DNA of 64,000 nt from contig CM075987.1 in NCBI GenBank assembly GCA_038087875.1, positions 21,638,001-21,702,000 of the forward strand, in the 5' to 3' direction. Position numbers and translations under genes: made by a program. Below are positions 5,011 to 63,760 of this stretch, piece after piece; the stretch's first letter is position 1, and the number at the start of each line of letters is the position of its first letter. Below the pieces are notes generated by a model, which was not told the DNA's origin, searched no databases, and saw only the letters and a list, made by a program, of their open reading frames with translations. Source of the stretch: Malacoraja senta (Eukaryota).

Positions 5011-5697
5011 CTGAAACATGGATTAAAATAGGTCAGAAACATAGTTCACGAGGTCCAATGTAAAACATATTTGAACATTTGGTATTCATTCTGCTTTCTA
5101 AAGGCAAATATTTTAGAGATCTTCTGAATTCAAATTAACCATCACTCCAGTCCAAACTATTCAACCCTGTGACCATTGGGAGTACCAAAGCATTAAATGC
5201 ACAAGTAGCTTATATTCCATGGAAAGCCTGCTGAGAGCTCTAGAAATTAATTTCAAAAGTTGATTCTTAATGGAATGCGAGTAAAGAGTTAAGAACTTTT
5301 TTGCTTCTGCCAAACAAATGTACAAAAAAAATCATAAATGTTTGCAGCGAAGAAATAGGTGATTCAACCTGACCACCTCTACTATAGTAGCTGACTGCTC
5401 ATAACTGGATTGTTTCAGTTTGTTCGTCATTAATCGCTTTGTGCATTTCCTATAATGGTGACCACCTTTGTAAATTCTTTACTGGCTGTAAAGCACTTTG
5501 GCTCAGATACAACTTGTTGTGATGATGTTGGGTTTTGTCGATTAAATAATGGCAGAGTACAACTTAGAACATACCATTATGTCACACTTCTATCCACCAA
5601 CCTCCCCACCCTAACATATTCCACCAGCATAGTTAAGACTGTTACAATGACACAACTGTACAGTGCTTCTCCCAATCCTCATTCTCACCATACTTAC

Positions 5698-5913
5698 CGT
5701 AACAAAGCCCATTTTGCCTACAGCTTCCTTGTGGTCATTGTCAACTTGGCAGACCAGTGCATTGCAAAGATGTACCGCTATTCGCTGAATAGATTCATCC
5801 TGCCGTGTCTGATTGAGGATGCCGAGGAGCAGCTCATTCACCCGCCGGTACTGGAATTCCAGCTCTTCTGGAATACTGAAGTTACAGAGCGTCAAGCAGC
5901 AATTCCGTTGTAC
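5698..5913 (-). CDS. ZER1: ZER1 coding exon (VQRNCCLTLCNFSIPEELEFQYRRVNELLL...KMGFVT)
   Basis: 216 nt, AG/GT bounded, matches ZER1 sequence. Confidence 0.95.
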
Positions 5914-6510
5914 CTACAAAGCCAGGGTGGAACCACAAGATGGAGTTAGGCAAACGAGTGCCACGAAGCTCACCATACAAATTAACAGCAAGAAAAAGCT
6001 CATTTTAGAATCAGAGCCAGCATCAGACAGCGTTGAAACAGGGTCTTTGGCCCAACTTGTCCATGCCGACCAAGTAGCCCCAACTAAGCTAGTCCCATTT
6101 GCCTGTGTTTGGCCTTTCCATGTACCTGTCCACATGCCTCTGGCAGCTTGTTCCATATACCCACCACGTACTGGGTGAATTTTGTGGGAGCAAAGTTCAT
6201 GGGTGAGGATTGGAGGGAGAGTGATACCAAACAAAAATAGCCTGGTTTTACAAGACTGGGGAATCAGGGGCAAGAAAGACATTTGGAGAATGGAGAAGGT
6301 GCACAGGGAGCTCCCACAAGAATAGCCAGAATTCAGCCATCAATCTACAGTACTGTATATCACGCTTTTGTATAAATCCTCAGAGACTAACTCAACTGAG
6401 TAAGTATCTATACTGAAGGGAATTGTAATATCTGGCATACATAATGAAGAGCTCAAGTCTCACACAGTTTACAGACGTGCATAGGTGTTGAATTAAGGTA
6501 AATTTCATAC

Positions 6511-6684
6511 CGTCACCTCGTGGTAGGACTCCATACCATTCAGCACCACCTGAATAACCTGGCGACGGAGCTTAATGCTCTGTTCTTGCCGGTAGTCAGA
6601 GCCAGTCAGGTAGAAGAGCGCTGCGCTGCCCGTCACCTGAACACTTTTGTCAAATTTGTGATACTTCAGTGCAGAGATCACCAG
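6511..6684 (-). CDS. ZER1: ZER1 coding exon (LVISALKYHKFDKSVQVTGSAALFYLT...YHEVT)
   Basis: 174 nt, AG/GT bounded. Confidence 0.95.
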
Positions 6685-7415
6685 CTGCAAAAAGAGAAAC
6701 GATTTTCAAAACATTCTCCTTCTATCTATTTTATGACTAGCTTTGTGGTCAGTACATCTCTTAATGATGCTTTCCACATGTAATTATCCCTTCATGTTTT
6801 TAATGGAGATTCACACTCCCACCGTTTGCTTGATCACCTTTAGGGTTCATAGGGGAATCACCTAGCATTTTTCCTTAATTGGTGCAAGGTTTTATCCTGT
6901 CTCTTTCGGGGAGATGATCAGACTGTAGTGTGGGTGATTAGGGATATTGCTGCATGCCTTAGCTTTCCCCTGCATCCTCTATCACACAGAAAGTTAAAAG
7001 CTAAATTCAATATCATCTAATCACTGCCTCCCAATTTATCATGCTATATCTTACTGAGAAAGTACTGCACTACTGGAGGTGGCATCTGTCAGATAAGACA
7101 TTGCACAGAGGCAGTTTCCCCGCAGGGGAAAATGGTTCATGTAAAGACATAACTAATGTACCAAACATGATTGCATTCAGAATCTAAAGGAGGTAGTATT
7201 TGGGCAAAATGCTGGAGGTCTGTAAAGCTATAAAATCAGTCAGAATAATTAATTTTAAGCAAATTGCCCCTGGAGCAAAATAAAACATCAAAAATTTGAC
7301 TAAGCACCAGGCCTGCCTTCCAGATGCAAGCAGCAATTTTTTTACATTCAATAGTTTTTAAATTGTCACCTTCCATTTCATGCACTCTTCCTTACTTTTG
7401 ACTTTTGAACCTTAC

Positions 7416-7562
7416 CCGTAGGGCACGCAATGGCTGGTCACATTGTTCAATACGTGCGATATCAAAGAGATGATTTATTGCACGTGAAGCAATCTCTGGT
7501 CGATATTCTGTATAAGCCTCAATAGCATTCAGGATTTGATCCTCATTCGCTTCCCCGGTTAT
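7416..7562 (-). CDS. ZER1: ZER1 coding exon (ITGEANEDQILNAIEAYTEYRPEIASRAINHLFDIARIEQCDQPLRALR)
   Basis: 147 nt, AG/GT bounded, manual translation. Confidence 0.94.
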
Positions 7563-7781
7563 CTAGTAACAGTAGCAGAACTGTAACACAATCTGCAGAT
7601 CAATTGTATGAAAAAATTCAAATGGTGCTACAGGCTCCACTGTGCTTATCATTGAATGTAAGCAATTACAGCTGATCATGTATACACACATTGGCATACA
7701 AACACACATGCTTACACAACCCTAAACTAGCATTTTAACTGATGTTAGAAAGAGCAACCAAGGAATGGCAGCCTCACTCAC

Positions 7782-7896
7782 CTTATAAGAAGGTATATGA
7801 GTTAGATTGCAGAGAGTGGTGTCAAATAATCCCAGGAACTGAAACGACCTATTCAGTGCACGGAATGGTTCAATGCTGCTCTTTTGTGGCTCATTA
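7782..7896 (-). CDS. ZER1: ZER1 coding exon (NEPQKSSIEPFRALNRSFQFLGLFDTTLCNLTHIPSYK)
   Basis: 115 nt, AG/GT bounded, phase 2 to 0. Confidence 0.93.
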
Positions 7897-8777
7897 CTGA
7901 ATACATAAAGTAAATAAGATAAATTAGTGTGAAAACTGGCACAGATTTCTTAAGTTTCTCAGAAACATTATATATATTGAAACGCTTTTTTTTTTTGCCT
8001 CACCCTTACCAACTGTTCTTTCACTTTTTAGGTCCTTAGACGTTTTATATAATAGAGATGTTCTATGTATTGTTTTAAAGTGCAAAATGACAAATGGCTA
8101 ATTAGATGGTTATATTTATGAAACCATAAATAGGATCTTGTGAGAACATTCCTGCTCTTTTCCAGTGCCTCCATTCTATCTTCAACTTTCAGTCTCAATA
8201 ACAGCAACAGGGCATGAAACCTTAGATCAACCTCTGATCCAAAGGACTGTATTGGACTAGAGTAACCAGCTTGTGCACTCAATAGAGTAGCATCAAACCC
8301 AGGACTTTCTGACTCAGAGATGGGAATCTCTGTACATGTAATGCGACTCTGGTCATTATGCAAAGAAGGGCAGGAAGTTCAGAGTGTTTTTGCCAAGCAG
8401 ATTAACCAAATTGACAGCATTGAAACAGGCCCTTTTGCCCAATGCCGACCAAGATGCCCCATCTAAGCTAGTCCCATTTGCCTGCATTTTGCCCATATCC
8501 CTCAAAACCTTTCAGATCCATCTTTCTGTCCAAGTGTCTTTTAAATGATGTATAGTACCTTCCTTCAACTACCTCCTCAGGCTGCTTGTTCAGTATACCC
8601 ACCACCCTCTAAGTGAAATGTTTGTATAATTTGCATACATTGGCTACTGCTCTTGCCTACATACCAATGATTGCCCTTCAGAACTAGTACGCTGAGTTAT
8701 CCTAGTTTTTTTGCCAGGTGACATATCTATGGTCAATAAAGAAACTTTGTTTTTTGTGATTAAGCCTCAGGTCTCAC

Positions 8778-8954
8778 CTTGCAGGGCCCAAGGCCTCATC
8801 ATGACTTGAGATTGCAGAGTTATCCAGCATCAGGTGTCCTGAGATGTCTAACGAGACAAGGTTTTTAAGGTTCTGCACAAAGGCAGTGAGGACTTTCCGA
8901 GTCAGCTTGAATTTGTAAAAACTGGAAGTTCTGTCACGAGAAATGTCTAAGTGT
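8778..8954 (-). CDS. ZER1: ZER1 coding exon (HLDISRDRTSSFYKFKLTRKVL...LVSLDISGH..., LRR)
   Basis: 177 nt, AG/GT bounded. Confidence 0.94.
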
Positions 8955-9064
8955 CTGTAGAAGAAATTGAAGCAAGATATTTGAGATGAATGCATTGAAT
9001 GACTCATCAATAACAATAACTTACTCTCTCCCTATCACTCCAGCTTTGTAGTATCTGAATGAGA

Positions 9065-9545
9065 CAGTTAACAGTTTAGTTTATTGTCACGTGTACCAAG
9101 GTACAGTGAAAAGCTTTTGCTGCGTGCTATCCAGTCAGCGGAAAGACAATATGTAATTACAATTGAGCTATTTACAGTGTATGGATACACGATAAAGGAA
9201 TTACGTTTAGTGCAAGGTAAAGCCAGCAAAGTCCGATCAAGGATAGTCCAACGGTCACCAATGAGGTAGATAATAGTTCAGGACTGCTCTCTGGTTGTGG
9301 TAGGATGATTCAGTTGCCTGGTAACAGCTGGGAAGAAATTGTTCCAGAATCTGGAGATGTGCGTTTTCACACTTCTATACCTTTGGCTTGATGGGAGAGG
9401 GGAAAAGGAGGAGTGGCCAGGGTGCGACTCGTTCTTGATTATGCTGTTGGCCTTGCCGACGCAGCTAGATAAAAATTGAGTCAATGGAAGGGAGGTTGGT
9501 TTGTGTGTTAGTCTGGGCTGCGTCCACAATTCGTTGCAATTGAGA
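9065..9545 (-). mobile_element. Rex1/Babar-type LINE 3' fragment
   Basis: RT C-terminal motif ANSIIKNESHPGHSSFSPLPSSQRYRSVKTHISRFWNNFFP and 3' tail; a similar tail lies at ~20635-20810. Confidence 0.75.
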
Positions 9546-10862
9546 CATGCAGAACATAATGATTCCAGGTCAGATTTCTGATCTGTGTTGACCATGCTTA
9601 ATTTGCCAAGAGTAATCCAGAAGCTCCCTCCCTTCGCTTGCCCAAACCGACTCATGCAAGTTCAAAGGCAAGTTCTACCTGACCCTAATGATGATCCTAT
9701 GGAGGCAAAAGTGGACAAATTAGAATTGCCAATGGCTCTCCTTTAGGATTTAGGCTCCTTGTATACCCCTCTGGAAGGTCAGTGCATGTCATTCACTCTA
9801 CCTTTTCCTTGTGAACGGGCAAAGCATGGGCCCACCTTGCAATGAAGAACAAAAGAACAATAAGCCCTTGGTGAAGTTCATTTCTCCTAGATTTGCTTAT
9901 GGAGGAAAAAATTTGATACTTTTGTTATATTAATTCTGACCTAAAGGCATTAAAGGTGTTAGTAAAGGCCATAGACCCTAATTGCAGGACATGTGCTAGA
10001 CAAGGGTTATGGAGACAGAGTGAGACAATGAGGGATAATGAAAATAAGAAAGAAATCCTTACACTTGAGGAATTATTAAATATTGAATGTGTGCCAATTA
10101 CGTTGTGGAATTCTGGTACTGTCATTGGTACCAATTTAATATCTGGTCATGGGTCTAGTGCAAGTTTTACTTGCTTCCTTTCATGCTTTTGGTCAACTTT
10201 TCTACTGATAAACCCCTATATAACGATTTAGAACACCAGATGGATTGGTATCTGGCTTACTGGGCTGCAGTTCCCACTCTTCCCTTTACATAATAGGCCC
10301 TGGTTCATGGTTCCCAGTGCTCCCTCGAAACTCACCTGGTTTTGTTTCCTGAAATGCCTAGAAACTTCCCACGCTTCCTTTTAATTAACTTACTGGGTTC
10401 GTGAAACAATTTATTATTTTCATCTAGAAAAAAAGCGAATTGAACAATTTGAAGAATTAACAGGGATAACATCCAATATTCTGTTAATCCAGTACCAGCA
10501 ACATTCTAGGCATGCTGGAGTTTTATTGTACTTCATGAGGCCTGGTAACAATTATTGTCCACTATTTATCATAGTAAGTGTTAGGAATGTTGGACTCCAT
10601 TAAAGGAGCTATTGAATTACGTTCCACTGTGACTGAGACACAGGGAATGCAACAATTACGTTTGGAAGGTTTGAAGATGGGTCCCAACTTGAAATGTCAC
10701 CCATCCTTTTTCTCCAGAGATGCTGCCTGATCCGCTGAGTTACTTAGCACTTTGGGTCTATCTTCGGTATACACCAGCATCAGTAGTTCCTTTCTACACA
10801 ATAAGTTCTGAACTTTGGGCCACCATGCAATCATGACCTAGAAAAAAAATAGGTTCCTCTAC

Positions 10863-11305
10863 CTGAGGTTAGTGAGCTGCAGGAGGACCCAGATGTGCTC
10901 CTCAGAGAGGTCCATGTTGTACAGCACTAATGACCCAAGCCGCTTCTGCCACTGCAGCAAAAATTGGATGTCATTCAGCTGGATCCCAGAGAGGTCAAGT
11001 GAGGTCAGAGTGGTCAGTGGCCGCAGGAGTCGGTCCACGTTCACTCCATCAGTTATATGACCCAGATTGAGAAAGCACAGCCGGTGGAAGCCAGTGAAGG
11101 AGAAGTCCTTGACGAGAACCTGCCGTGAGGGGTTCACCATGCTGTTGTTGTCCCCTTCGCAGCCGCCAGGATTCTCCTCTTCGTAAAAAATGTTATTGCA
11201 CCCAAACAGGCTGAGTGAAACCAGCGTGCTGCGGAAGTTATTCAGAGTCTGTAGGCTTTTGGCAGAGAGTCTATCGCAGTTCACAAGGCGAAGCTCAACG
11301 AGATC
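10863..11305 (-). CDS. ZER1: ZER1 coding exon (DLVELRLVNCDRLSAKSLQTL...LTNLR, LRR region)
   Basis: 443 nt, AG/GT bounded, LRR motifs. Confidence 0.95.
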
Positions 11306-12044
11306 CTGAAAAACATAGCAAAACTAAATGTCACTGGAAGAAGAGTCAGCGAGTCCAGATTACCAAACAAAAATGTTAGCTGCAACTTTACAGTCTGCAA
11401 TTAGCAAACAAAAAACAGTAATCTCATAAAAAAAATAAAATGCTGGAAGAACACAGGGTGTCACGTAGCGTCTATGGAGGGAAATAGACACAGCATTGTG
11501 GGTTTGGACCCTTCTTCAGATATCGTCTATCTATTTCTCTACATGCTGCCTATCCTGCAGAATTCCAAGGATAGTTAATTTTTTACTCAAGGTTCCAGCA
11601 TCTGCATTCTTTTCAATGTAAGTTATATTTAAAAAAACATGGACTAACAGTCCAGAAGCCTGAAACAGGAATCGCGAAGTCTAGGCTATTAATCCAGAAT
11701 GTTCAAATGCTGCTGTAATACTCTGAGAATTTAAAATATTGCTCAAGGATAAATATCATATAGCAGCAAAAATGACTATGAGATTGTCTGATTGTAAAAA
11801 CGATTTCCCTGCTGCCGTACTCATTCCAGACCCATTCTCTTCCACATCCACAACATGGTTGACTGAACTGTCCTTGAATCTTGCAAAACTATCAATTCTC
11901 GGGCAAAAAGTATAGGAAATAAATTGTGGCCTTGGCAGGGACTTCCATATCGTAGGATGAATAACATTAAAATAAAACTAACCCCTAAGCTCCTAAAGAA
12001 CCCCTAATTAGTTTTATTAATACAGTTTTCAGCATATCTATTGT

Positions 12045-12352
12045 TCAGTTTAGTTTAACGATACAGCATTGAAACAGTCCTTTGGCTCATCGATGCCATG
12101 CTGCCAATCACTCATTCACACTAGTTTGATGTTATTTCTCATTCCCTCTCCACACACTGGGGACAATTATTCAGAGGCCAATTAGCCTACAGACCCCTTG
12201 TGTCTTTGAGATGTGGGAAGGAGCTGGAGCATCCCGAAGAAACCCAGGCGGTCACAGAGAAGGTGTAAACTCCACACAGATAGCACCCGAGGTCAGGATA
12301 GAACCTGGGTCTCTGGCGCTATGAGGCAGCAGCTCTGCCCGCTGCGCCACTT
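12045..12352 (-). mobile_element. HE1-like tRNA-derived SINE
   Basis: Minus-strand head GTGGCGCAGCGG...CCCAGGTTCTATCC (A/B-box like) with a CR1-like tail. Related copies at ~28814-29105 (+), 39075-39270 (+), 40025-40300 (+) and 44445-44740 (-). Confidence 0.75.
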
Positions 12353-12656
12353 TGCCGTTCTGTTGTCTCACCTTTTTCAGAATGTTTCATATTTTCCATA
12401 TGGTTTTACACACAGCAAAAGTGGTATGCACAGAATGTTCTTAGAAGCTCATACCTACCTCAACCATTTTCAAAACAATATTTGTTCATTAGCAAAATAT
12501 TAATAGCAGCAGTGAAGAAATTGTAGTAAAAATTTACAAGGATATGACCAGAATGTAGAAGTTGCAATTATTACAGAGTATGGAAATTCAGGTGTTTTTC
12601 TCTGGAAGAAAATAAGGATGAATTAAGAAACATAACGTTACTCATGTTACTCATAC

Positions 12657-12816
12657 CTGTTTGGAAAATGCCACCAAGTCCTCATCATGAATGATATCCT
12701 CATGAATCCCCCTCAGGTGTACATGCGTCAGACGGGTGCTCCGATGGTCTGAGAACAAGCTAAAGAAACTCAAGTGTCCTGGGAAGCTGTTGTCTGTGTT
12801 CACTAGGTCCATGTAC
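12657..12816 (-). CDS. ZER1: ZER1 coding exon (YMDLVNTDNSFPGHLSFFSLFSDHRSTRLTHVHLR...FSKQ)
   Basis: 160 nt, AG/GT bounded. Confidence 0.93.
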
Positions 12817-13892
12817 CTAGAGGAAGCATTGGGGACAGGATGAGCCTTTTTAAACCTACTCGAGTTCAGAACTGAAAAGAATGATTCAAATGAGGGGTCA
12901 GCAAAACATGGAAAATATTTTTTTCTTGGAACGTCACCATATTTGGTTACAAAATGCAAATTGCCATTATATATTGCTTCACTTCCAACCCATCAGTCTT
13001 TCAGCATCTCACTCAAGCCAGCCTTCAATCCTCTAAACTCAAATTTACGCAGCCCAACCTTATACTTTAGCTTTTCTAACATATTCTTATCTATTTTCCT
13101 GTTAAATCTACCTGTAATTTTTGCCTCAACTATTCCATCTAACGGTAAGATCCATAGTTTCATTATTTTCTTATTGATTGCGTTCTGCTAAGATTTCTGT
13201 TTAGATATACAGTATTAGTGACCTATGTCAGTTGGCAGCACAATACAGAAGCATCTTTGTAACATAGTTTTAAAAATCTGGAGCTCTCTGCATCTAAAAA
13301 CTCTACAAGTATCCGAGGTTAGATAAAGTACTTGAGGCCGAGACCAATAGAATTTGTGGGTAGATACATCAAGAAACCTGGAGCCAAGATGTGAAAATTG
13401 AGTTGAGATAAAGACCACACAAGGTAGATCAGGTTTGAAGGGCTGAATTGTCTCTTCTGCGTGCTAGATGGGCTGATTGGACCTTACTGCCCATAATTAC
13501 CTTGGTCACTCTTGATTACTTCCTGTTGAATCATTTCGTTTCTGAAACCACATAAACCTTGAGCCACTCAATCTTGTTCTGCCATCCAACCACGTCTTGG
13601 CCAATCTGCACCTTAACTTCATCCAACTTTCGTGGTTCCTTACCCATTTAATATCCTTGTCCAACAAGAATCAATTTCAGTTTTTGAAATTATCATCTCA
13701 CTGGCAGTCATAAAAACTTTTCAGGATGGTTAATAAAATTTTTTTTATAAAATGCCTTTTATGATCATGGGACATTACAAAATTCTTTATAGATAAATAA
13801 ACATTTTAAGTGTTATTGCTTTGTAATATAGGAAATTGGTAGACAATTTGGACAGAGCAAAGCAACAGCATTCCAGATCTTCTCTACCCTAA

Positions 13893-14427
13893 TGTGAAAG
13901 TTAGTTTCTTAAAAAAGCAGATAGCAACAACCGTTGAAGGTAGACCATGGCAATCTTTAATTAAATCGTCAGACGGAAGTGGCGAGATACAATGAGCACA
14001 AACGTTGCTCAGTGCTTCTCGGGCTCCCACTCACAGAACAAAGGCGAGTTAGCACAATTATACATTTTTCTTATCAGTAAAACACTCCTACCTAGTCTAA
14101 ATATGGCATGACTGAAAGATTCTGTAGCCTTTCACAATATAGGAAAGCTGGGTCCAAATCGAGCTCCTCCAATGACAAGTTATTACTTATCTCTGGAGCG
14201 TCAGCTATTTTTTAAATCTTGGCTTCTTTATGGCCTTGAAGAAGAACATGTTATTACTGCAGGCTGCCATCTTAATGTCTTTATTGAAAAGACAATCTGT
14301 CCTCCATATTGTGTTCCATGTAATTTACAAAGTCATTCAGACTTGGCACCGAGCCATTCTTTGTTCTACTAGTCCATGCTTTTGTAGAAGAACGACTCCA
14401 TTTTAGATTTGACTATTAGCTCTTTCA
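13893..14427 (-). repeat. 3' LTR of the ERV-like element
   Basis: 535 bp, near-identical to 19581-20126; preceded on the minus strand by the polypurine tract AAAAAGGAGAGAA (14428-14440). Confidence 0.95.
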
Positions 14428-14632
14428 TTCTCTCCTTTTTATCAAACGTGATAACATTCACAGTCCTTGATAGGTACACACAAAGGTCGCAGGTATTAGA
14501 GCAATGATTAGCTGAATGATAGAGCCATAATGTATCACAGTACCCCAAAGTCCACCAAACCAAAGGTATGGCTACCAGTTCAATAGTACCCCAAAGTCCA
14601 TCAAACCAATTGTATGGCAACCAGTTCTCACT

Positions 14633-15354
14633 CTCTTCATTGACAACCATCCTGATGAAGCTTGTTTAGGGTCGATGGATCAGGTGCCACCTGTAGGCGG
14701 TGTAATCCTTTCAGCCGATATTGGGGTTGTGCCATAAAGTTCGCACCTGTCTGAGGGTGTTGTCAGTCTCTTCGTAGATTGTTGCACAGGTGAGGTGCTC
14801 CCCCCCTCTCGTCCTGTGGTGGGGTTCATCACCTTGTAGTATCCTAGCGTATCCGTGGGTTTGGGCAACTTCTCCTAGTAGATTTGGGTGGACTGCTTCC
14901 ACATCACCACGTAGAAGCCAAAGACAAAGCTAGCGTAGATTGCAGTCTGTGTTGATGTAGAAGGTGCCATTGAAATTGATGTCGTTGAACTCAAATCCGA
15001 CAGTAAGGCCAGGCTCAGAGTTGGCGGTCTGCAGTAACTCCCTGCCCTTGTTGTGCACTACCCAGTTAGTATTGATCTGCATCGTCCCCTTTGGAACTTC
15101 CTCAGGTCCGTCTCACTGATGGCGCTGTTCTCAGGGCACATGTCATAGATATCTGGGATGCTGTTGTCAAAGTCCTTGCAGGTGTCTCCTCTGCTGTCAC
15201 CATCGGCATCGATCTGGTTAGGGTTGGGAACAAAACAGCAATTGTCCTTCTCATCAGAAACGCCATCATTGCCATCCACATCAATGTCCTGATTGTCTTC
15301 ACACTGATTAACCACCAGGTCTGAGTCATTGTCTTCCTGGATAGGGTTATAGAG
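14633..15354 (-). pseudogene. Intronless, degenerate thrombospondin (THBS2-like) fragment: type-3 Ca-binding repeats plus C-terminal L-lectin domain, inside the ERV
   Basis: Translates (with frameshifts) [114 protein letters not shown]. Collinear with THBS1/2 across several exons with no introns. Confidence 0.92.
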
Positions 15355-15359
15355 GTCCG

Positions 15360-15510
15360 TCTTTTTCAAAATGTTCAGCTTCTCTCTCTCTAGGCCCTTG
15401 GTCATACGATAGAGCTCAAAATGCTTCAAGATTGTTGATCAAATGTGGTTGTCTTTCCGAAGTTGTGACCAAAGGCTTTGCACTTCCTCCTGATCTGTAA
15501 AGATGTTCTT
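15360..15510 (-). pseudogene. Short degenerate fragment resembling the CRACR2A/CRACR2B/RAB44 coiled-coil region, inside the ERV
   Basis: [31 protein letters not shown]...[10 protein letters not shown] compared with recalled CRACR2A [22 protein letters not shown]...EKNELECALKRK. Confidence 0.55.
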
Positions 15511-15512
15511 TC

Positions 15513-16465
15513 TTCTGCATGGATCAGCTGTACATGGCACTGCTGGTAGCGATCAATCAGAAACACCTCGTTACCTCCTGGGTGGGGGCAAGGTCTTTCA
15601 CGCACCTGTTCAAGCTGCTCTTTTATGTGTTTCTTAAGTCCGTCAACTCCCCTGTAACAGCACAGTAACCCTTATACTGACATCGATACACGGTGGGGAA
15701 ATTTTCCCTTTCCAAGTTTGACTTTGGTTTCCGGCCACGTTTTTGTCCAGATTGTTTCTTCACATCCTTAATATTGCACTTCTTAACTGGTAACTTACTC
15801 TTCTTCTTCCAAATGGTTGAAAAGACTCATCTGAAGAACCATTCTTAACTTTTATTTCTCTGTCATCTTCACTTGATAAATACCTTTCAGAAAGATCACT
15901 GGACTCCAATCCATCCATAACATAATTTCTTATAGAACAAGTTGCTTCATTGCAGTTAACTGTTTTTTTAATGGTTGAGTTGCATCTTGTACCTGAACCT
16001 TTTCCCAAGAGCACTCTGTATATTCAGGATATGAGCGCAAGAACATATCCTTCTTCAATGGGGATTCCGAGTTGTCCACACACACCGACCGTAAAGTGGT
16101 TCCACTGTATGTACAAGGCTGAAAGTCTGTTAACACTGGGACAGGTTGATGCTTCGCAACATTATCACCCTCACCATTTTCAGTCACTGTTCTATTCCAA
16201 GGTGAAAAGGTTATTGAACCATCCAGAACTTCCTCCACCGAGTCCTTATTTCTACTGTATGGGCACTGTCAGCCATGATCATATTGGAATGGCGGATGAT
16301 ATTGGATCATATTGGATGATCAGCCATGATCATATTGAATGGCGGTGCAGGCTTGAAGGGCCGAATGGCCTACTCCTGCACCTATTTTCTATGTTTCTAT
16401 GTCCCTCATTCAAAACAACGCTGCGACTTGAATGCATGTCCAGGATGTAACTGTGGCCCTCTGTT
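15513..16465 (-). pseudogene. Intronless degenerate ZNF276 mid-region fragment (acidic region plus first C2H2 fingers), inside the ERV
   Basis: SSDLSERYLSSEDD...SSDESFQPF, ERENFPTVYRCQYKG, YRGVDGLKKHIKEQLEQVRERPCPHPGGNEVFLIDRYQQCHVQLIH match recalled ZNF276 (ELPTIYKCPYQGCTAVYRGADGMKKHIKEHHEEVRERPCPHPGCNKVFMIDRYLQRHVKLIH). Interrupted by a CR1 3' tail at ~16247-16402. Confidence 0.9.
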
Positions 16466-16825
16466 ATCAGAGTTCTGAACAGTGCTTCCAATTGCTAGTA
16501 TTCTGCCTGATGCACCTCTACCCCATTGCATACATTGGACTTTGTCTCTGGAACTGGTGTGCTATAATGCTCAGAACTATATTCTCCACACTAACCTTTA
16601 TCTGAAGAAGGGTTTCGGCCCGAAACGTTGCCTATTTCCATCGCTCCATAGATGCTGCTGCACCCGCTGAGTTTCTCCAGCATTCTTGTCTACCTTTCCT
16701 TTGCTCTACCTTTTTTAGGTGAGCCTGAATTGATTACAATTAATCATGTTAATCCTTTGTGTCTTGCTGACATTGAAAAAGGGTGCAAGATTCTTTAGAC
16801 TCATCATTTAGCTGTTGAATAACTA

Positions 16826-17023
16826 TTAACTGGGTTCCTGCTTAATTAATGTTTCCAAACTTAGCTCACTTGATTCAATTTCAATACGTTTGTTTTTATC
16901 TGTATTCTGGGTCAAGGGATGAACCATGGACATATGAACATTCAAATTGTGAGCCTTCTCGAACCGCTTCTCACATTGGTCACAAGCAAATCCAAGTTTA
17001 GCTTCCGTCTTGTGCTTGGTCAG
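16826..17023 (-). pseudogene. ZNF276 C-terminal fragment (last zinc finger to stop codon), inside the ERV
   Basis: Open 66 codons: LTKHKTEAKLGFACDQCEKRFEKAHNLNVHMSMVHPLTQ...IKQEPS*, versus recalled ZNF276 MTKHKAETELDFACDQCGRRFEKAHNLNVHMSMVHPLTQ...VKPEPT. Confidence 0.92.
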
Positions 17024-17066
17024 TGTTATAAATGTAAGGACAGTTGTCAGCCTTATTCAGGGCGTC
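17016..17066 (-). pseudogene. 5' piece of the thrombospondin fragment (DALNKADNCPYIYNTDQ)
   Basis: TSP type-3 repeat matching recalled THBS2 DVFNERDNCPYVYNTDQ, which lies just upstream of where the main fragment resumes. Confidence 0.8.
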
Positions 17067-17189
17067 TTGGTGCAGCGGGTGTTTCCCCAAGTCCAGCTCA
17101 TCTGGGCCAACCTCAGGATAAAAAGTAGGGCCAATAGCCCCATTGTCCTTTCTTGGTTCTCCTCCATTTATAGTCAATCGTATCAGATG

Positions 17190-17492
17190 TCTTCAATGGG
17201 AGTAATCTTCAATCTTCACGGCAATTGGTGTCGTAGTAACACCTGGTACAGTCCCCTCCAACATGGTCCCGATTTTGTCCGATCCCAGTAGTATGGACTG
17301 TATCTGTATTCAACTGGCAGTGGCGTCTGCGTTTTCAACCTCTGTGAATACAAGACTGACAAGGTTGTGCTTAATTGCTGTGCGTATGCAATTAATTCAT
17401 TGCTGTGGGCCTGTAGGTCAAAACTAACTTCCACACTCTCTAGTGTCCTAGTCATTCCCTCCACTAATCCAGAATTCTACGGGTAGTGGGGG
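17190..17492 (-). pseudogene. Retroviral integrase C-terminal remnant
   Basis: PHYP*NSGLVEGMTRTL (cf. YHPQSSGxVERMNRTL) and PCWRGLYQVLL...AVKIE (GPY/F module), internally deleted. Confidence 0.8.
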
Positions 17493-18599
17493 ATGAGAGA
17501 TCACTCTTTAACTACCTATAAGGCTGACCCTTTAAAAATAGATCATTATATTAAAAAAAAACAATTTAAAAAATATTCCCAATTGTTCCAATCTATCTCC
17601 CCAAATTTACAATTTCAAATTAACAGATTTTGTTCTGAGATAAAGGCATCTCCAATCTCCTCTAACACATCTACCTGAATGTCACGTGGCCATTGTGGAA
17701 TTCAGGTCTCTGTTTGAACTCAATTCAAAAGGTAAGAAATAAGGAAAAGAAAAAAATAATAAACCTAAAGTTAAGAGAAAACAAAGAATCAACAATTAAT
17801 TTCCATAGATTACAAGCTCATTCAATGACTTCCTATTTCATCTGACATGGAGCATTTCATCAAAAGGGGTATATATATAAATATAGCCTGTAACTTTATG
17901 TCAACTATCCCGATAGGCTTTGGGAGAAATAAAAAAAAACATAGCTAAATTCTAAACACAGTAAAATTAAGCTGCCAGTATCCTGTTATCATAGCCTTGA
18001 AAAGAATACTGAGCTTCTGTAGTCAGATAAGAGACAGAACTTGGATGAGTGACAACTCAAAAGAACACGGAGAACTATAAGAGCCAGAACTTCCTTGAAT
18101 ACTTTTGAAAGCTTTTCGGTTTTAACAAATACTAATCTTCGAACATTAAAATAAAACGAATACAAATAAAAACCAGGCAAAATATACATCAATTAAACAA
18201 ATTTAATCCGAGCGGAGTTAGCAAAAGTGGAGTAGCCCCCTCGTTTCCAAAAACCATGCAAAGCATTAGAGACGTCTCTCACTATATTAATTTTTTTTTT
18301 CCTCCCTTATCTGACAAAAGCCGTTCTGTTTAAAAGGGAATTGTTTCTATGGGAACCAATTTGCAGAATTGATGCAGAATTAGCAAGCTAGGAAATTCCC
18401 CAGGCAGATTTTGTGAACTCGGACTGGGAGGTTTGCAAAAGTTGTCTTCTTGGTTGGAGTGAGAATTTAAAATGAACAAAGGGAGTAGTTCAATGTAATG
18501 GTGGGCGTGCTAATGTTCAAAACGGGAGTGGTCTGAGCTGTGATTGGACAGTGATCCAGATTGTGTTTGGCCACCTCCCCCTTCTTCTATAGACAGAGT

Positions 18600-18966
18600 C
18601 GCCATTGCCAGACATAGGGTCTCGAGAGGTTCGAGAGGACCTAGAGAAGACGTACCGGTACCGGCTTATCAGCGGGCTCCGAACTCTTATCAGCGATTTC
18701 TTTCTCTGCCTTAGCCCTTATCTCCTATTCCTCTGCCCACTGAAATTCCATCTGAAGTACTTTCCATTCTTTTAATAGTTCTGTCTTTGTACACAATTCA
18801 ATTCCTCTTTTACAAGCATAATTCATCCAACCACCATCTCGTGTCTCCACCATATGCCTCCTACTGGTCAAGACACATTACTCAAACGTTTGGTCAATTT
18901 ATAATTCAATATAACACATGTGTTGTACAGCTGTCTTTTCATCACATTTATCCAAATTATTTCCAT
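18600..18966 (-). pseudogene. Possible gag matrix remnant
   Basis: With a frameshift reads M(G)NNLDKCDEKTAVQHMC...LTKRLSNVS*PVGGIW...ELLKEWK; position after the leader fits gag. Confidence 0.45.
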
Positions 18967-19558
18967 GTTTATCCAATCACCAAATCACATCTTAGTACAC
19001 AACTTAGTATACAAATTGTAACTAAACTTTTTTTCAGCCTGCTAAGCCCAATCCTTTATTTGTAACAAACCTTTGCAGTCTGTAAAGTCCAATCCTGCCT
19101 ACTCTCTCTGGTAGCAAATTCACAAGTCTTTTCAAAACACTGTCTCTTCAAGACACATTAACTTCTTAATACACATCATTTCAAGACACCCAGTCTTTTC
19201 AATACACAATTAGTGACAAAAACGTTGTAGTCCGTCGTGTCCAGTCCTTTAATTGTGACAAAACCTCTATGGTCTGCCGTGCCCAATCCTTTACTCATTT
19301 CCAATACACAAGCCAATCATTTACTAATTTCCAATACACAAGCCAATCCTTTACACAAGTGGTCTTACCTTCGCTCTCTGCTTCAAAGGATCTTGTCTGG
19401 AACCAGGCCAACCTCAGACTGAAGGACCTTAGTTTTTCACCGAGAGCTTCTTCGGGAGGCCAGACTGCAAAGGGTCCGACTAGAGGTCAATTTTCTCCCC
19501 TTCAGATCCCGGTCAACTGCACCCTCTTACTCAGTCATCTGTTGCTGGTTCCAGCTAC

Positions 19559-19578
19559 ATCCCTGCCGACTACAGCCA
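19559..19578 (-). promoter_or_regulatory. Primer binding site, tRNA-Ser-like
   Basis: TGGCTGTAGTCGGCAGGGAT begins 2 nt after the 5' LTR; near-complement of the vertebrate tRNA-Ser 3' end (ATCCTGCCGACTACGCCA) with small insertions. Confidence 0.8.
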
Positions 19579-19580
19579 AA

Positions 19581-20126
19581 TGTGAAAGTTTGTTTCTTAA
19601 AAAGCAGATAGCAACAACCGTTGAAGGTAGACCTGGCAATCTTTAATTAAATCGTCAGACGTAAGTGGCGAGATACAATGAGCGCAAACGTTGCTCAGTG
19701 CTTCTCGGGCTCCCACTCACAGAACAAAGGCGAGTTAGCACAATTATATATTTTTCTTATCAGTAAAACACTCCTACCAAGTCTAAATATGGCATGACTG
19801 AAAGATTCTGTAGCCTTTCACAATATAGGAAAGCTGGGTCCAAATCGAGCTCCTCCAATGACAAGTTATTACTTATCTCTGGAGCGTCAGCTATTTTTTA
19901 AATCTTGGCTTCTTTATGGCCTTGAAGAAGAACATGTTATTACTGCAGGCTGCCATCTTAATGTCTTTATTGAAAAGACAATCTGTACTCCATATTGTGT
20001 TCCATATAATTTACAAAGTCATTCAGACTTGGCACCGAGCCATTCTTTGTTCTACTAGTCCATGCTTTTGTCGAAGAACGACTCCATTTTAGATTTGACT
20101 ATTAGATTTGACTATTAGCTCTTTCA
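19581..20126 (-). repeat. 5' LTR of the ERV-like element
   Basis: By eye differs from the 3' LTR by about 8 substitutions, two 1-nt indels and a 13-bp duplication. Confidence 0.95.
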
Positions 20127-20213
20127 CTAAGACATTGCCATCCTGACATCGCCATCCTGAATCATCGCTCTGCCTTCCTTCCCCTCCTTTCCAATTTCGT
20201 ACACAAAACTCAC

Positions 20214-59800: not shown

Positions 59801-62336
59801 CAAAACGATGTGCACTTGTATTTAAAAAAATAAATTTTTACAAATTGCGCTTAATGTCTGTCTGAATTTTAGAATTGAAATAAAATTATTAGCATATTTT
59901 GTTCAAAATGCACAATGTATATTGTTGTTTTGAAACAATAATTAAAAAATATATCCATATTATTTTGGTTGTTTGATGTAATCTATGTGCATCATTAGTT
60001 CCAGGTATTTGTCCATCTTCAATTTTCTGCCATTTTTTGGCCAAGCTTTATCTTTCTAGGCATCAAGCTGTTTAATTCTATTCATAAACTTACTGCCCTT
60101 TCCATGTCTGAAGATGCTCCATGAAACCTACGTCATTGCTTCCTTCCATCTTCATGGTGCATTGCATCAGGAAGGCTGGAAGTACTGTCAAGTATACCTA
60201 TCATCCTGGCCATTCCTTTTTTCTCTGTACTTTCTGGAGAAGGTACAGGAACTTGAAAATTTAGATATCCAGACTTAAAGTTTAAGTCACCTGCCCTAAA
60301 GGTTTCCTTCTGCGGCTGTGTCAAATTTAGTTGGCTGATGCCTGGCACCTTAGGGCATTTAACTATATTACGGATGCTGTATAAATATAGATTTATATGC
60401 ACGCCCTAATGGAAATGCAGCCTGACCAGGCAGTATCACCGTATTGCTTGTTTTTGTTTAAGAACAACAGAAACAGTTGAACATGAACACTTCCTTCTAT
60501 TCAGTCCATTTATAAACTCATCTAATCAAACTGATATATTTGTGCTCCAAGTATTGTTCCCCAATTTTCCTACCAAAGTGCCCTACATCACATTTACACA
60601 GTTTATATAGCAACTGTCACCACCTTGCTCAATTGCTTAATCTGTGTCTATATCCTGATGGTTCACTTTCTAACCATAGTCTGCATCAAAGCCAAGTTGG
60701 ATAAACTGCTGACGGCCAAGAACTGGTCCCTCTAAAAATATTTTGAAAGGAACTTGATTCTGATTCCCACATTCTCGTGAAACTTAGAGGGGGCCTTCTT
60801 TCCCGCGCTCCTTTTAAATTGACCAGTTCCACTGTCACATCTAAAACAAAATTAAGTGTGTAAATTAATAATTGAAAGTCGTCTGGCCTAGCGTCACCGA
60901 AATGCCGGATTTCGGATTAACTGAGTTTAATGTGATGTTTAAAACATTAGCAATTTTACATTCTCTACAAAAAAAAACCGAGGTGTTGTTTCTATGGACG
61001 CGCGTTTGACGCTGCTTTGCCGTCGTTTCATCAGCGGAGAATTTAAGTCGTCACGATCAAGGCAACTGAGTAAACCAGCCAGACAGTTTTGATTGTTAAT
61101 ACTGGAGAATCAAAATTCTAACATATTACCAGACAGTTGTTGCAGAGCCCGCTGATCCTTTAACGTCAGGTAACCGTATTAACAAAAGTCGCGCAATCGA
61201 TTTCACGTAAGAAGACTGGTGTTTATCCAGGTGTAGGAGCGGATCCTCGGGTCATCCCATTCCCCATCACCGGCAACCACGAGTTAAGAGCGTAACCCAA
61301 ATGTTTCATTGGCAAGACCAGGGTGATGAAAATGTGCAGCATTTTCCCCTCAAAGTGGTTCACAAGAATAATTGATGTTTAAGAAGGAACTGCAGATGCT
61401 GGAAAATTTTGTCTACAAGAATAATTGATGTGGTTTTCTGATGCAGATTTTCGATTCGAAATGTCGATAATTCGTTCCAACGCTGATGATGCCCAACCTG
61501 CAGAGTGCCTCCAGTAGTAAAATGGTCGGAGAGAGAACTTCTTCAGAGAATGCTTCTAGTGGATGCTTGAAGAAGGGTCCCGACTCGAAACGTCACATAT
61601 CCACGTTCTCCAGAGATGCTGCCTGACAGCTGTTACTCCAACACATGGCGTCCTTTAATGTAAACCAACATCTGCAGTTCCTTGTTTCTACTTTTCGTAG
61701 ATCGTTGCGCAAGAATAATTGTTGACATTACCATCAATGCCCAGAAACCGAAAAATAAATAAATATCAACGTCATTTAAGTTGTAATTAATGATTTAATT
61801 TATGATCAAAAAACAGCACTGACAAGTCATCTTCATAAAGATAGACACAAAAAGCTGGAGTAACTCAGCGGGTAGGCAGCATCTCTGGAGAGAAGGAATG
61901 GGTGACGTTTCGGATCGAGACCCTTCTTCAAGCGTCCTGGAAGCAGACACAAAATGCTGGAGTAACTCAGCGGATCAGGCAACATCTCTGGAGGGAAGGA
62001 AAAGGGTGACGTTTCGGGTCGATTCCTTCTCTCCAGAGATGGTGCCTGACCCGCTGAGTTGCTCCAGCATTTTGTGTCTACCTTCGATTTAAACCAGCAT
62101 CTGCAGTTCTTTCCTACACATCCACTGGAAGCATTATCTTTGAATAAGTTCTCTCTCCGACTATTTTACTACTGGAGGCACTCAGCGGGAAAACGTCGTC
62201 CATTCCTTCTCTCCAGAGATACTGCCTGCCCCGCTGAGTTACTCCAGCTTTTTGTGACTATCTTCCTTGCTTTGATATGGGTTTGATTTGGACACATTGG
62301 GGCGTCACTTGCGTCGGTTACACTTGTATCGGGCGG

Positions 62337-62348
62337 CGCGCATGCGCC
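62337..62348. promoter_or_regulatory. NRF1-type palindrome in the ENDOG promoter
   Basis: GCGCATGCGC (62338-62347) about 55 nt upstream of the ENDOG ATG, next to a GGGCGG box. Confidence 0.65.
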
Positions 62349-62402
62349 AGGCGTGTGACATTGACACAGTCCCATTCACAGAAAAAGTTGCAAGGTTCTA
62401 GA

Positions 62403-62939
62403 ATGCGCCGCGCACTGAGCTCACGGTGGCTGTTGGCGGGAGTCTCCTTGGCTGCAGGGGCCGGTTTGGGGGTGGGATACGGAGCCCACCGGCACCAAGA
62501 TGCTTCCGACTCCTTCCTTCATTGCCCCGTGATCCCTATCCAGTCTGTAACCGCGGATGCCGTTGCCAACGAGTCCTTGGTGCCGGTCAGTCCGGCACAG
62601 CTGACCCTCGGCAAGACGACCGAAATCATGAAATTCGGTTTCCCTTCTCTGTCCCATATCAAGACCCGCGAATCATACGTGTTGGCGTATGACCCACGCA
62701 CCAGGAACGCCCTGTGGGTGCTGGAGCGATTGGACGCGGGCAGACTGGGCCTGACTGGCTCCGACCGCAATCGTTGTGTATTTAGGGAGGATGAGTCTGT
62801 GCATGAATACCACCGAGCACAGAACAGCGACTTCAAAGGTAGCGGTTTCGACCGGGGTCACTTGGCAGCAGCCGCTAATCATAAGCACAGCCAGAAATGC
62901 ATGGATGATACCTTCTACCTCAGCAACATGGTGCCTCAG
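62403..62939 (+). CDS. ENDOG: Endonuclease G, mitochondrial, exon 1
   Basis: Arg/Leu/Ala-rich presequence MRRALSSRWLLAG..., KFGFP, RESYVLAYDPRTRNALWVLE, catalytic FDRGHLAAAANH, DDTFYLSNMVPQ then gtaacc donor. Confidence 0.96.
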
Positions 62940-63760
62940 GTAACCAGTAGGGAAGCATAAAATTCCAGATCCTATAAATTCGAAACACAGACAGAAAGCT
63001 GGAAATGCTTAGCAGGTCGAGAGATATCAATGGGGTAAGGACACACAGGGAAGGTTTGGAGATTTAGAACTTCATCAGAACCGGAATGCTGAGAAGGCGA
63101 AGTTGCAAAAACAGGAAGTGGAGAGAGAATCGTGGGAATGTTTGTGATAGGGTGCAGATCCAAGTTGCCAATTATTTAAAAAACAATATGTTTAAGAGAT
63201 AATTGAAACAAATGTACTGCTGCATTTCGAGCGGAACAGTATATGATAGGAGCATCCCACAATGTCTGTGCCAAACATGATGCCAAGTTAAACAAATCTC
63301 CTCTCCCTTCATTCCCTGCATTTCCGCGTACATATCTAAAAGCCTAAAAAATGCCACTATCACATCTGCCTCAAACACCATACCTGACACTGTGTTCTAG
63401 GCACCCACCACACTCTTGAGTTTAAAATAACTTGCCCTGTACCAAAGGACCCCTTTCCATGATTTATTGTTGATTATTTTTTTCATTCTGAAATAAGGTA
63501 AATTTATGATAAAATCATAGCTTTTTATGGTTGAAAACCAAGCTGCTTTGAGAAGGACATACATACAGTCTGAAGCATAACATTCCTTCAGTTTTGAGGG
63601 GAAGAAGTGAAACATAGTTAGATTCAGTTGGGATATGTTTATAGAACATGCAGTCTGGACCAACAATTGAATTTATTTTCATTTTGGTAACTTAAACACA
63701 TTTTACTATCTATATACTGTCCTTTTCTGTGCTAGTCTTAGATTTACTTCTTCCCTTTAG

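Follow-up and report, generated by a model that had tools for sequence, protein, structure and literature searches.

The capture of host transcripts by long terminal repeat (LTR) retroelements has been described for several systems, which are outlined here from the parts of the publications that were covered. In LTR-mediated retroposition, according to the main text of Tan et al. (2016; PMC5131818), intron-less partial mRNAs occur in LTR elements with microsimilarity at the joins, and one mouse retrocopy combines four genes. In the endogenous retrovirus (ERV) CrocERV31, nectin3 mRNA is present in place of env in several copies that have env-bearing relatives (PMC4299795). The maize element Bs1 contains segments of three host genes and is reported to form a chimeric open reading frame (ORF) (PMC13317346, PMC5131818), and dozens of mouse pseudogenes derived from circRFWD2 are found in the context of the LTR element MMERVK10C, with non-colinear exons joined at an exon 6–exon 2 back-splice (PMC4897178). 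Multi-gene capture by LTR elements is thus known, as illustrated by Bs1, the mouse four-gene retrocopy and the capture in CrocERV31; no case that combines nesting with two permuted inserts and a surviving intermediate was encountered in the parts of the literature searched. That search, with most subscription papers and supplements outside its scope, also yielded no description of the skate element treated here or of permuted LTR retrocopies.

The present element, 6.2 kb long, was encountered in a 64,000-nucleotide stretch of DNA from the skate Malacoraja senta, hereafter called the window. With good confidence, we consider it to be a copy of a non-autonomous ERV family in which intron-less pieces of THBS2, CRACR2A, BICD2 and ZNF276 mRNA, nested in one another and likely captured in rounds, have taken the place of env, and in which a later deletion has left the 8-mer TGACCAAG as its scar. 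As in the cases of Tan et al. (2016), mRNA pieces replace an internal region, microsimilarity occurs at several of the switches, chimeras comprise several genes and further non-autonomous rounds are involved; unlike those cases, as presented in the main text, where the word 'circular' does not occur, the skate pieces are nested three deep and two of them are circularly permuted (PMC5131818). The family shares with CrocERV31 that it is a vertebrate ERV with host mRNA replacing env and with env-bearing relatives, whereas CrocERV31, in the part of the report covered, carries a single gene whose ORF is under purifying selection and the skate element four broken gene pieces (PMC4299795). Like Bs1, the element is non-autonomous and holds several host-gene segments, but according to the sections covered it differs in having no chimeric ORF and a vertebrate ERV as carrier (PMC13317346, PMC5131818). 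The non-colinear exon order, the large copy number and the LTR-element context recall the circRFWD2-derived pseudogenes, as far as these are described in the part covered, but the skate joins lie mid-exon or in a 3'UTR, both at short repeats of 7–8 nt and not at back-splice sites (PMC4897178). The parts of the window copy, in element order, are as follows.

13893–20126, minus strand: whole element, non-autonomous class I-like ERV copy with LTRs, primer-binding site, polypurine tract and 4-bp target site duplication
19581–20126, minus strand: 5' LTR, TG...CA, 98% identical to the 3' LTR; preceded by the duplication TTAG at 20127–20130
19562–19578, minus strand: primer-binding site; the same motif directly follows the 5' LTR in 9 of 10 sisters examined
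17083–17473, minus strand: decayed integrase C-terminal remnant and env start, 71–82% DNA identity to relatives L160 and L161
17016–17063, minus strand: THBS2 5' piece, type-3 repeat ending in NKADNCPYIYNTDQ; contigs extend THBS2 upstream and bridge to the 3' piece
17015–17022, minus strand: TGACCAAG, read from sister comparison and junction pattern counts as the scar of a ~510-base deletion
16457–17022, minus strand: ZNF276 last exon (C-terminal finger, stop, 3'UTR), 93% identical to skate ZNF276 and upstream of the earlier exons
16601–16692, no strand given: short dispersed repeat of family D5 inserted in the window copy, missing here in sisters
16457–16463, minus strand: CAGAGGG, second microhomology deletion scar, which removed the original 3'UTR-to-exon-2 join of ZNF276
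16270–16400, no strand given: second short repeat inserted in the window copy, from sister comparison
15506–16457, minus strand: intron-less ZNF276, from part of exon 4 through exon 9 to the first bases of exon 10
15354–15511, minus strand: CRACR2A/EFCAB4B pieces, three exons joined with one internal deletion, from the host locus match
14635–15353, minus strand: THBS2 3' piece covering type-3 repeats and the C-terminal domain; frameshifts and internal deletions occur in it
14428–14640, minus strand: env tail remnant and polypurine tract; ATGAAG at the junction is common to THBS2 contigs and the env relative L161
13893–14427, minus strand: 3' LTR, followed by the duplication TTAG at 13889–13892

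Paired TG...CA LTRs with a primer-binding site and a polypurine tract identify the carrier as an LTR retroelement, and the 4-bp duplication on both sides of the window copy is of the kind found with class I ERVs. The primer-binding site is presumably of the tRNA-Ser type. The relatives L160 and L161, which have no cassette, match its outer flanks on both sides and have env sequence between them, running on into env past the region that matches 17083–17473; since env occupies the position of the cassette in these relatives, the cassette has replaced most of env. We take the motifs in 17083–17473 to be those of integrase and env, and those in L160 and L161 to be those of integrase and the env TM. 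Searches of Pfam gave Gag_p30 in L160 (E 0.004) and RNase H in L154 (E 0.002), both under the cut-off, and no match for window-type integrase/env remnants; the integrase remnant was likewise unrecognised in a PDB search, no reverse transcriptase remnant was recognised in the family copies, Rfam gave no matches over the element and the window contains no tRNA genes. The carrier is best described as a class I-like ERV, an assignment based on the target duplication, a sub-threshold Pfam match and motif resemblance, not on a reverse transcriptase tree.

The family is dispersed. Sister copies are 87–92% identical over 1–1.8 kb among the 40 of 5663 candidates scored in a first search, and the 87 matches to its junctions lie on many contigs, with differing flanks in the copies examined, as expected of secondary non-autonomous spread; no intact helper element was identified. 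About a third of the element words are also present in DNA runs of four other organisms. The LTRs of the window copy are 98.1% identical to each other, compared with 85.7–95.6% in nine sister pairs, which may reflect LTR conversion or a recent new transposition of a copy that had already decayed. The window interior differs by 5–10% from the sisters despite this near-identity of the LTR pair. Stops, frameshifts and deletions break the cargo ORFs in the window and in the other copies translated, and therefore no function is proposed; none is evident, and the cassette is likely a passenger.

In its full form the cassette can be written as THBS2[CRACR2A[BICD2]CRACR2A[ZNF276]CRACR2A]THBS2, and it comprises four genes, not three. 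Along the element, the THBS2 5' piece is followed by about 30 bases of a late CRACR2A exon, BICD2, the continuation of the same CRACR2A exon, an earlier CRACR2A exon, ZNF276, the rest of that earlier exon with later CRACR2A exons, and the THBS2 3' piece. The CRACR2A pieces were identified by their EF hands, with EFCAB4B (6PSD) as best PDB match, by a Ras domain and by the host locus at G000:C3:72.20-72.22 Mb (72.207-72.219 Mb compared); homologue and Atlas searches with them gave nothing usable. The BICD2 exon pieces are 96–98% identical to G000:C4:87.08 Mb (Pfam BicD, E 2e-10) and are not visible in the window copy, from which they were lost with the ~510-base deletion. For ZNF276 the host locus is G000:C2:152630676-152673244, where the exons are 86–100% identical to the Amblyraja protein P0021. 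Introns are missing for ZNF276, CRACR2A and BICD2, that is, wherever the host locus could be compared, and intron-less partial mRNA within a discontinuous LTR element is what an LTR-mediated retrocopy looks like; the proposal that capture took place at the RNA level is supported by this. The further proposal that ZNF276 and CRACR2 had entered as one block did not hold, as the intervening sequence is not a single unit.

A single THBS2 transcript does appear to surround all of this. In the window THBS stops at YNTDQ near 17016 and starts again at 15354, exactly where this had been noticed, and the gap, first estimated at about 18 residues, is 17 residues against the THBS2-like protein P0003 of Mobula (YNTEQ ends at 826, MHNP starts at 844). 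The restart had been read as LYNPIQED, of which NPIQED stands, whereas the 'LY' is peculiar to the window copy and the sisters have EIMHNP. For comparison with host order we used assembled contigs, obtained from runs guessed to be RNA and mapped to the sister copy L041, in whose coordinates joins are given here. Since contigs from 4 of 4 runs join both THBS pieces (5469->7436), these come from one gene, and the predicted nested insertion inside one THBS2 transcript is thereby supported. Both internal THBS deletions are real as well, although the lost residues of one are MVHLDP and not the MVPLD first given: a 19-base piece reading MVHLDP occurs in one run's contig and is missing from the element. 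The other spans 33 residues against P0003 of Mobula (DIDEDG ends at 871, the NDGV stretch restarts at about 905) and is already present in the copy L133, which at L133:4320-4455 also contains an insertion of ~130 bases with a short flanking duplication in its THBS2 piece.

The 3' exons of host THBS2 were found neither by a protein search of the assembly, nor in the 160 kb that follow the 5' exons (C2:108.12 Mb), nor with a 25-base motif allowing 2 mismatches. At G000:C2:108.12 Mb the gene is present only to about residue 261. A THBS paralogue at C2:44.76 Mb was considered as source and rejected, being 74% identical over just 76 bases of the element. In the little skate, Leucoraja erinacea, proteins P0001 and P0002, annotated as 'thrombospondin-2-like', look like copies of the skate element; P0002 starts with CRACR2A-derived residues fused to THBS2, and therefore the same junction exists in that species.

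The original prediction had placed the entry of ZNF276, together with CRACR2, into THBS2 at TGACCAAG, by a template switch at this 8-mer. The motif is indeed located at 17022–17015 on the minus strand, can be read in both frames in the window and occurs in host ZNF276 exon 11. Nevertheless, we consider this explanation very improbable, since fuller sisters carry TGACCAAG twice, ~510 bases apart, with the spliced CRACR2A, BICD2 and ZNF276 exon 10 between the two in host register, and since the long-form THBS2/CRACR2A junction is already present in older copies without ZNF276. Among the 37 stretches tested, the two anchors lie apart in 16 (14 by 506–520 bases, one by 585 and one by 349) and the short form is found in 4, including the window, the remainder being without an anchor; genome-wide, junction patterns with at most 2 mismatches gave 80 long-form versus 7 short-form matches, counts that include assembly duplicates. 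Because the missing stretch is spliced host sequence in register, and the older copies without ZNF276 have the long junction, the short form is the derived one. Judged from these copies, TGACCAAG does not mark a capture point but was left by a later deletion between two 8-mers inside the finished cassette; this deletion took away a CRACR2A piece, BICD2, more CRACR2A and, of ZNF276, exon 10 and the beginning of exon 11. Of the expectation that both parents contain the 8-mer, the part concerning ZNF276 is correct for the downstream copy, in exon 11, whereas THBS2 contigs diverge after TGACCA; as they leave the element at this point, the upstream 8-mer appears to straddle, and thus to be made by, the THBS2/CRACR2A junction.

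Similar deletions occurred elsewhere in the cassette. Within ZNF276, the CAGAGGG form is found in 20 copies, including the window, and an 8-nt GCCACAGT deletion in 11, while exons 2–4 are kept in 4, and probably 5, copies. Five copies with the 8-mer deletion have 5.2 minor letters per kb in common, as compared to 2.8 with other copies, which suggests that they form a subfamily; a tree of 46 copies gives no resolution of single versus repeated deletion, and L047 has a different, neighbouring one. The 8-mer deletion may have had one origin followed by recombination, or two origins.

Both ZNF276 and CRACR2A are circularly permuted, with closures mid-exon at 7- and 8-nt microhomologies. In 40 of the 40 copies that retain both parts (93 stretches), ZNF276 runs from exon 10 through exon 11 and the 3'UTR to mid-exon 2 and on to exon 9, the 3'UTR being joined to exon 2 at AGAAGCT, which is found at both host sites. 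In CRACR2A a late exon is joined to an early one at AGGTAAAT, a motif that both exons contain in the host gene, where they are separated by 11 kb; this rotation already exists in L133. Contigs restore the host order of ZNF276 (7264->5832, 6 shared letters, 3 of 4 runs) and of CRACR2A across the ZNF276 insertion (5808/5810->7263/7265, 3 of 4 runs), and the outer ends of CRACR2A are rejoined in host order by a contig from 1 of 4 runs (7436->5667). ZNF276 sits at a single point of CRACR2A, with the 6-nt AAAGAA at both ends; this motif, which ends the ZNF276 piece at 15511–15506, is common to ZNF276 exon 10 and the CRACR2A target. The CRACR2A pieces that flank BICD2 are 7 bases apart within one host exon.

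The microhomology is 6–8 nt long at four of the junctions; one junction has 4 nt and another about 1 nt. Three further junctions are not scorable, among them the two between THBS2 and CRACR2A, which would have to be compared with the missing host THBS2 3' exons. Random joins of host exons gave overlaps of 6, 7 and at least 8 letters at frequencies of 0.0023, 0.0008 and 0.0003. The weaker cases are the two sides of BICD2, with 4 letters towards the following CRACR2A piece (chance 0.02) and about 1 base at the preceding one; at the 3' end of the cassette, THBS2 contigs and the env of the distant relative L161 overlap by 6 letters. About 19 bases before THBS2 have no assigned source. Microhomology-guided jumps are supported as a general mechanism, as had been proposed. 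At the 5' end of the ZNF276 insert (L041:5811-5831 and sisters) a 14-base filler resembles the bases after AAAGAA in exon 10; from this resemblance, it is likely a local tandem duplication.

These structures are best explained by reverse transcriptase switching onto co-packaged host mRNAs at microhomologies over successive rounds, presumably with THBS2 replacing env first, CRACR2A entering THBS2, BICD2 entering CRACR2A and ZNF276 entering CRACR2A last. For a rotated insert, most likely the enzyme would enter the mRNA, copy upstream, jump downstream on the same transcript at a 7–8 nt repeat, copy back to about its entry point and return to the element; for ZNF276 the same AAAGAA would be re-used at the exit, giving a product equal to one pass round a circle. 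The family would then have spread by helper-dependent retrotransposition, gathering further microhomology deletions.

It is also possible, although we regard it as the less probable course, that the rotated inserts derive from circles of RNA or cDNA which already existed, had been closed at short repeats within exons, and entered the element by one crossover or enzyme pass. A single crossover with a circle predicts what is seen at ZNF276, which opens at a single point, flanked on either side by AAAGAA, without any loss of sequence; two of the four captures are permuted, and circRNA-derived copies within an LTR element are known from mouse, in the part of that report covered (PMC4897178). At the CRACR2A opening, however, sequence was lost between the ends, and since neither closure is at splice sites an ordinary back-spliced circRNA is unsuitable; a circle and two jumps on a linear RNA would otherwise leave indistinguishable sequences. 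The related notion that reverse transcriptase takes up host mRNA as whole-circle units, closed at a 7–8 nt repeat without back-splicing and inserted at one point of cargo already carried, an event that would be recorded twice here with the pre-insertion element surviving, is likewise tentative. DNA-level acquisition, with an integrated element being repaired from processed pseudogenes or cDNA, seems unlikely to us. Short microhomologies and the local tandem duplication at the ZNF276 5' end would also suit end-joining, but that one small element was hit three times in succession speaks for the particle, and no stand-alone pseudogene of the four genes was present among the loci fetched, which is not a systematic survey.

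Under the preferred reading of capture in successive rounds, earlier stages may survive as copies. Three of them (L133, L155 and L157) contain THBS2, CRACR2A and BICD2 but no ZNF276, and their CRACR2A exon is continuous. At 23 diagnostic sites, defined by a non-host letter common to ZNF276-bearing copies and including the junction itself as one site, the host letter is kept at 7 in L133, 4 in L157 and 3 in L155, as compared to at most 2 in the ZNF276-bearing copies (n=47). Because L133 is host-like at 7 of these sites, ZNF276 is likely the last capture, and the predicted entry of ZNF276 after THBS2 is supported. A search with the exact ZNF276-less junction yielded no matches, a false negative, since each of the three copies departs from the pattern by substitutions.

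Alternatively, all four genes could have been captured in one round, the ZNF276-less copies being later clean deletions between the duplicated AAAGAA. Such a 6-mer invites exact loss, this ERV family deletes repeatedly at 7–8 nt repeats, and L155 has 20 of the 23 derived letters in common with ZNF276-bearing copies; taken alone, L155 and L157 could indeed be clean losses. We nevertheless judge a single round improbable, since L133 combines its 7 host letters with a diverged LTR, older copies of the type on contig C385 have 4–6 host letters at 9–10 scored sites, and the base adjoining the junction in L155 is still the host T. In the star-like tree of 46 copies, from which L133 was excluded by the length filter, L155 and L157 are not placed together as a basal group. 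The older copies (L104, L162, L163, L170 and L171, on contigs C385, C1195 and C3064) have multiplied many times on unplaced contigs along with one set of LINE and SINE insertions, a pattern that points to amplification at the DNA level; the LINE has removed the site where ZNF276 would be.

With ZNF276 thus placed last by the more probable reading, the order of the first three captures is given by the nesting alone. Sisters with an uninterrupted THBS insert had been suggested as a target for searching; an exact gapped pattern for intact THBS2 matched neither a copy nor a host exon, and it is therefore the geometry alone that places THBS2 first; no copy lacking only BICD2 was present among those fetched, and the three genes could have entered in one multi-switch round.

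The family would preserve the history of serial mRNA capture by a vertebrate ERV with unusual completeness: env-bearing relatives, a three-gene stage, a four-gene stage and deletion derivatives all occur in one genome. It indicates that capture can permute exons and not just fuse them, which would provide a route to circularly permuted gene pieces without back-splicing. Microhomology in a single copy may reflect later decay instead of capture, and such copies become annotated as host genes, as illustrated by P0001 and P0002 of the little skate.

Elsewhere in the window, inverted repeats at 1257–2841 surround a transposase frame (1486–2142) that we take to be Tc1-like. Exon-like frames at 5611–12992 (minus strand), presumably of a ZER1/ZYG11-type gene, are on the same strand as the element, and therefore the ERV copy may be intronic in that gene. 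A frame at 62238–62960 (minus strand) with a DRGH motif seems to us to resemble endonuclease G.
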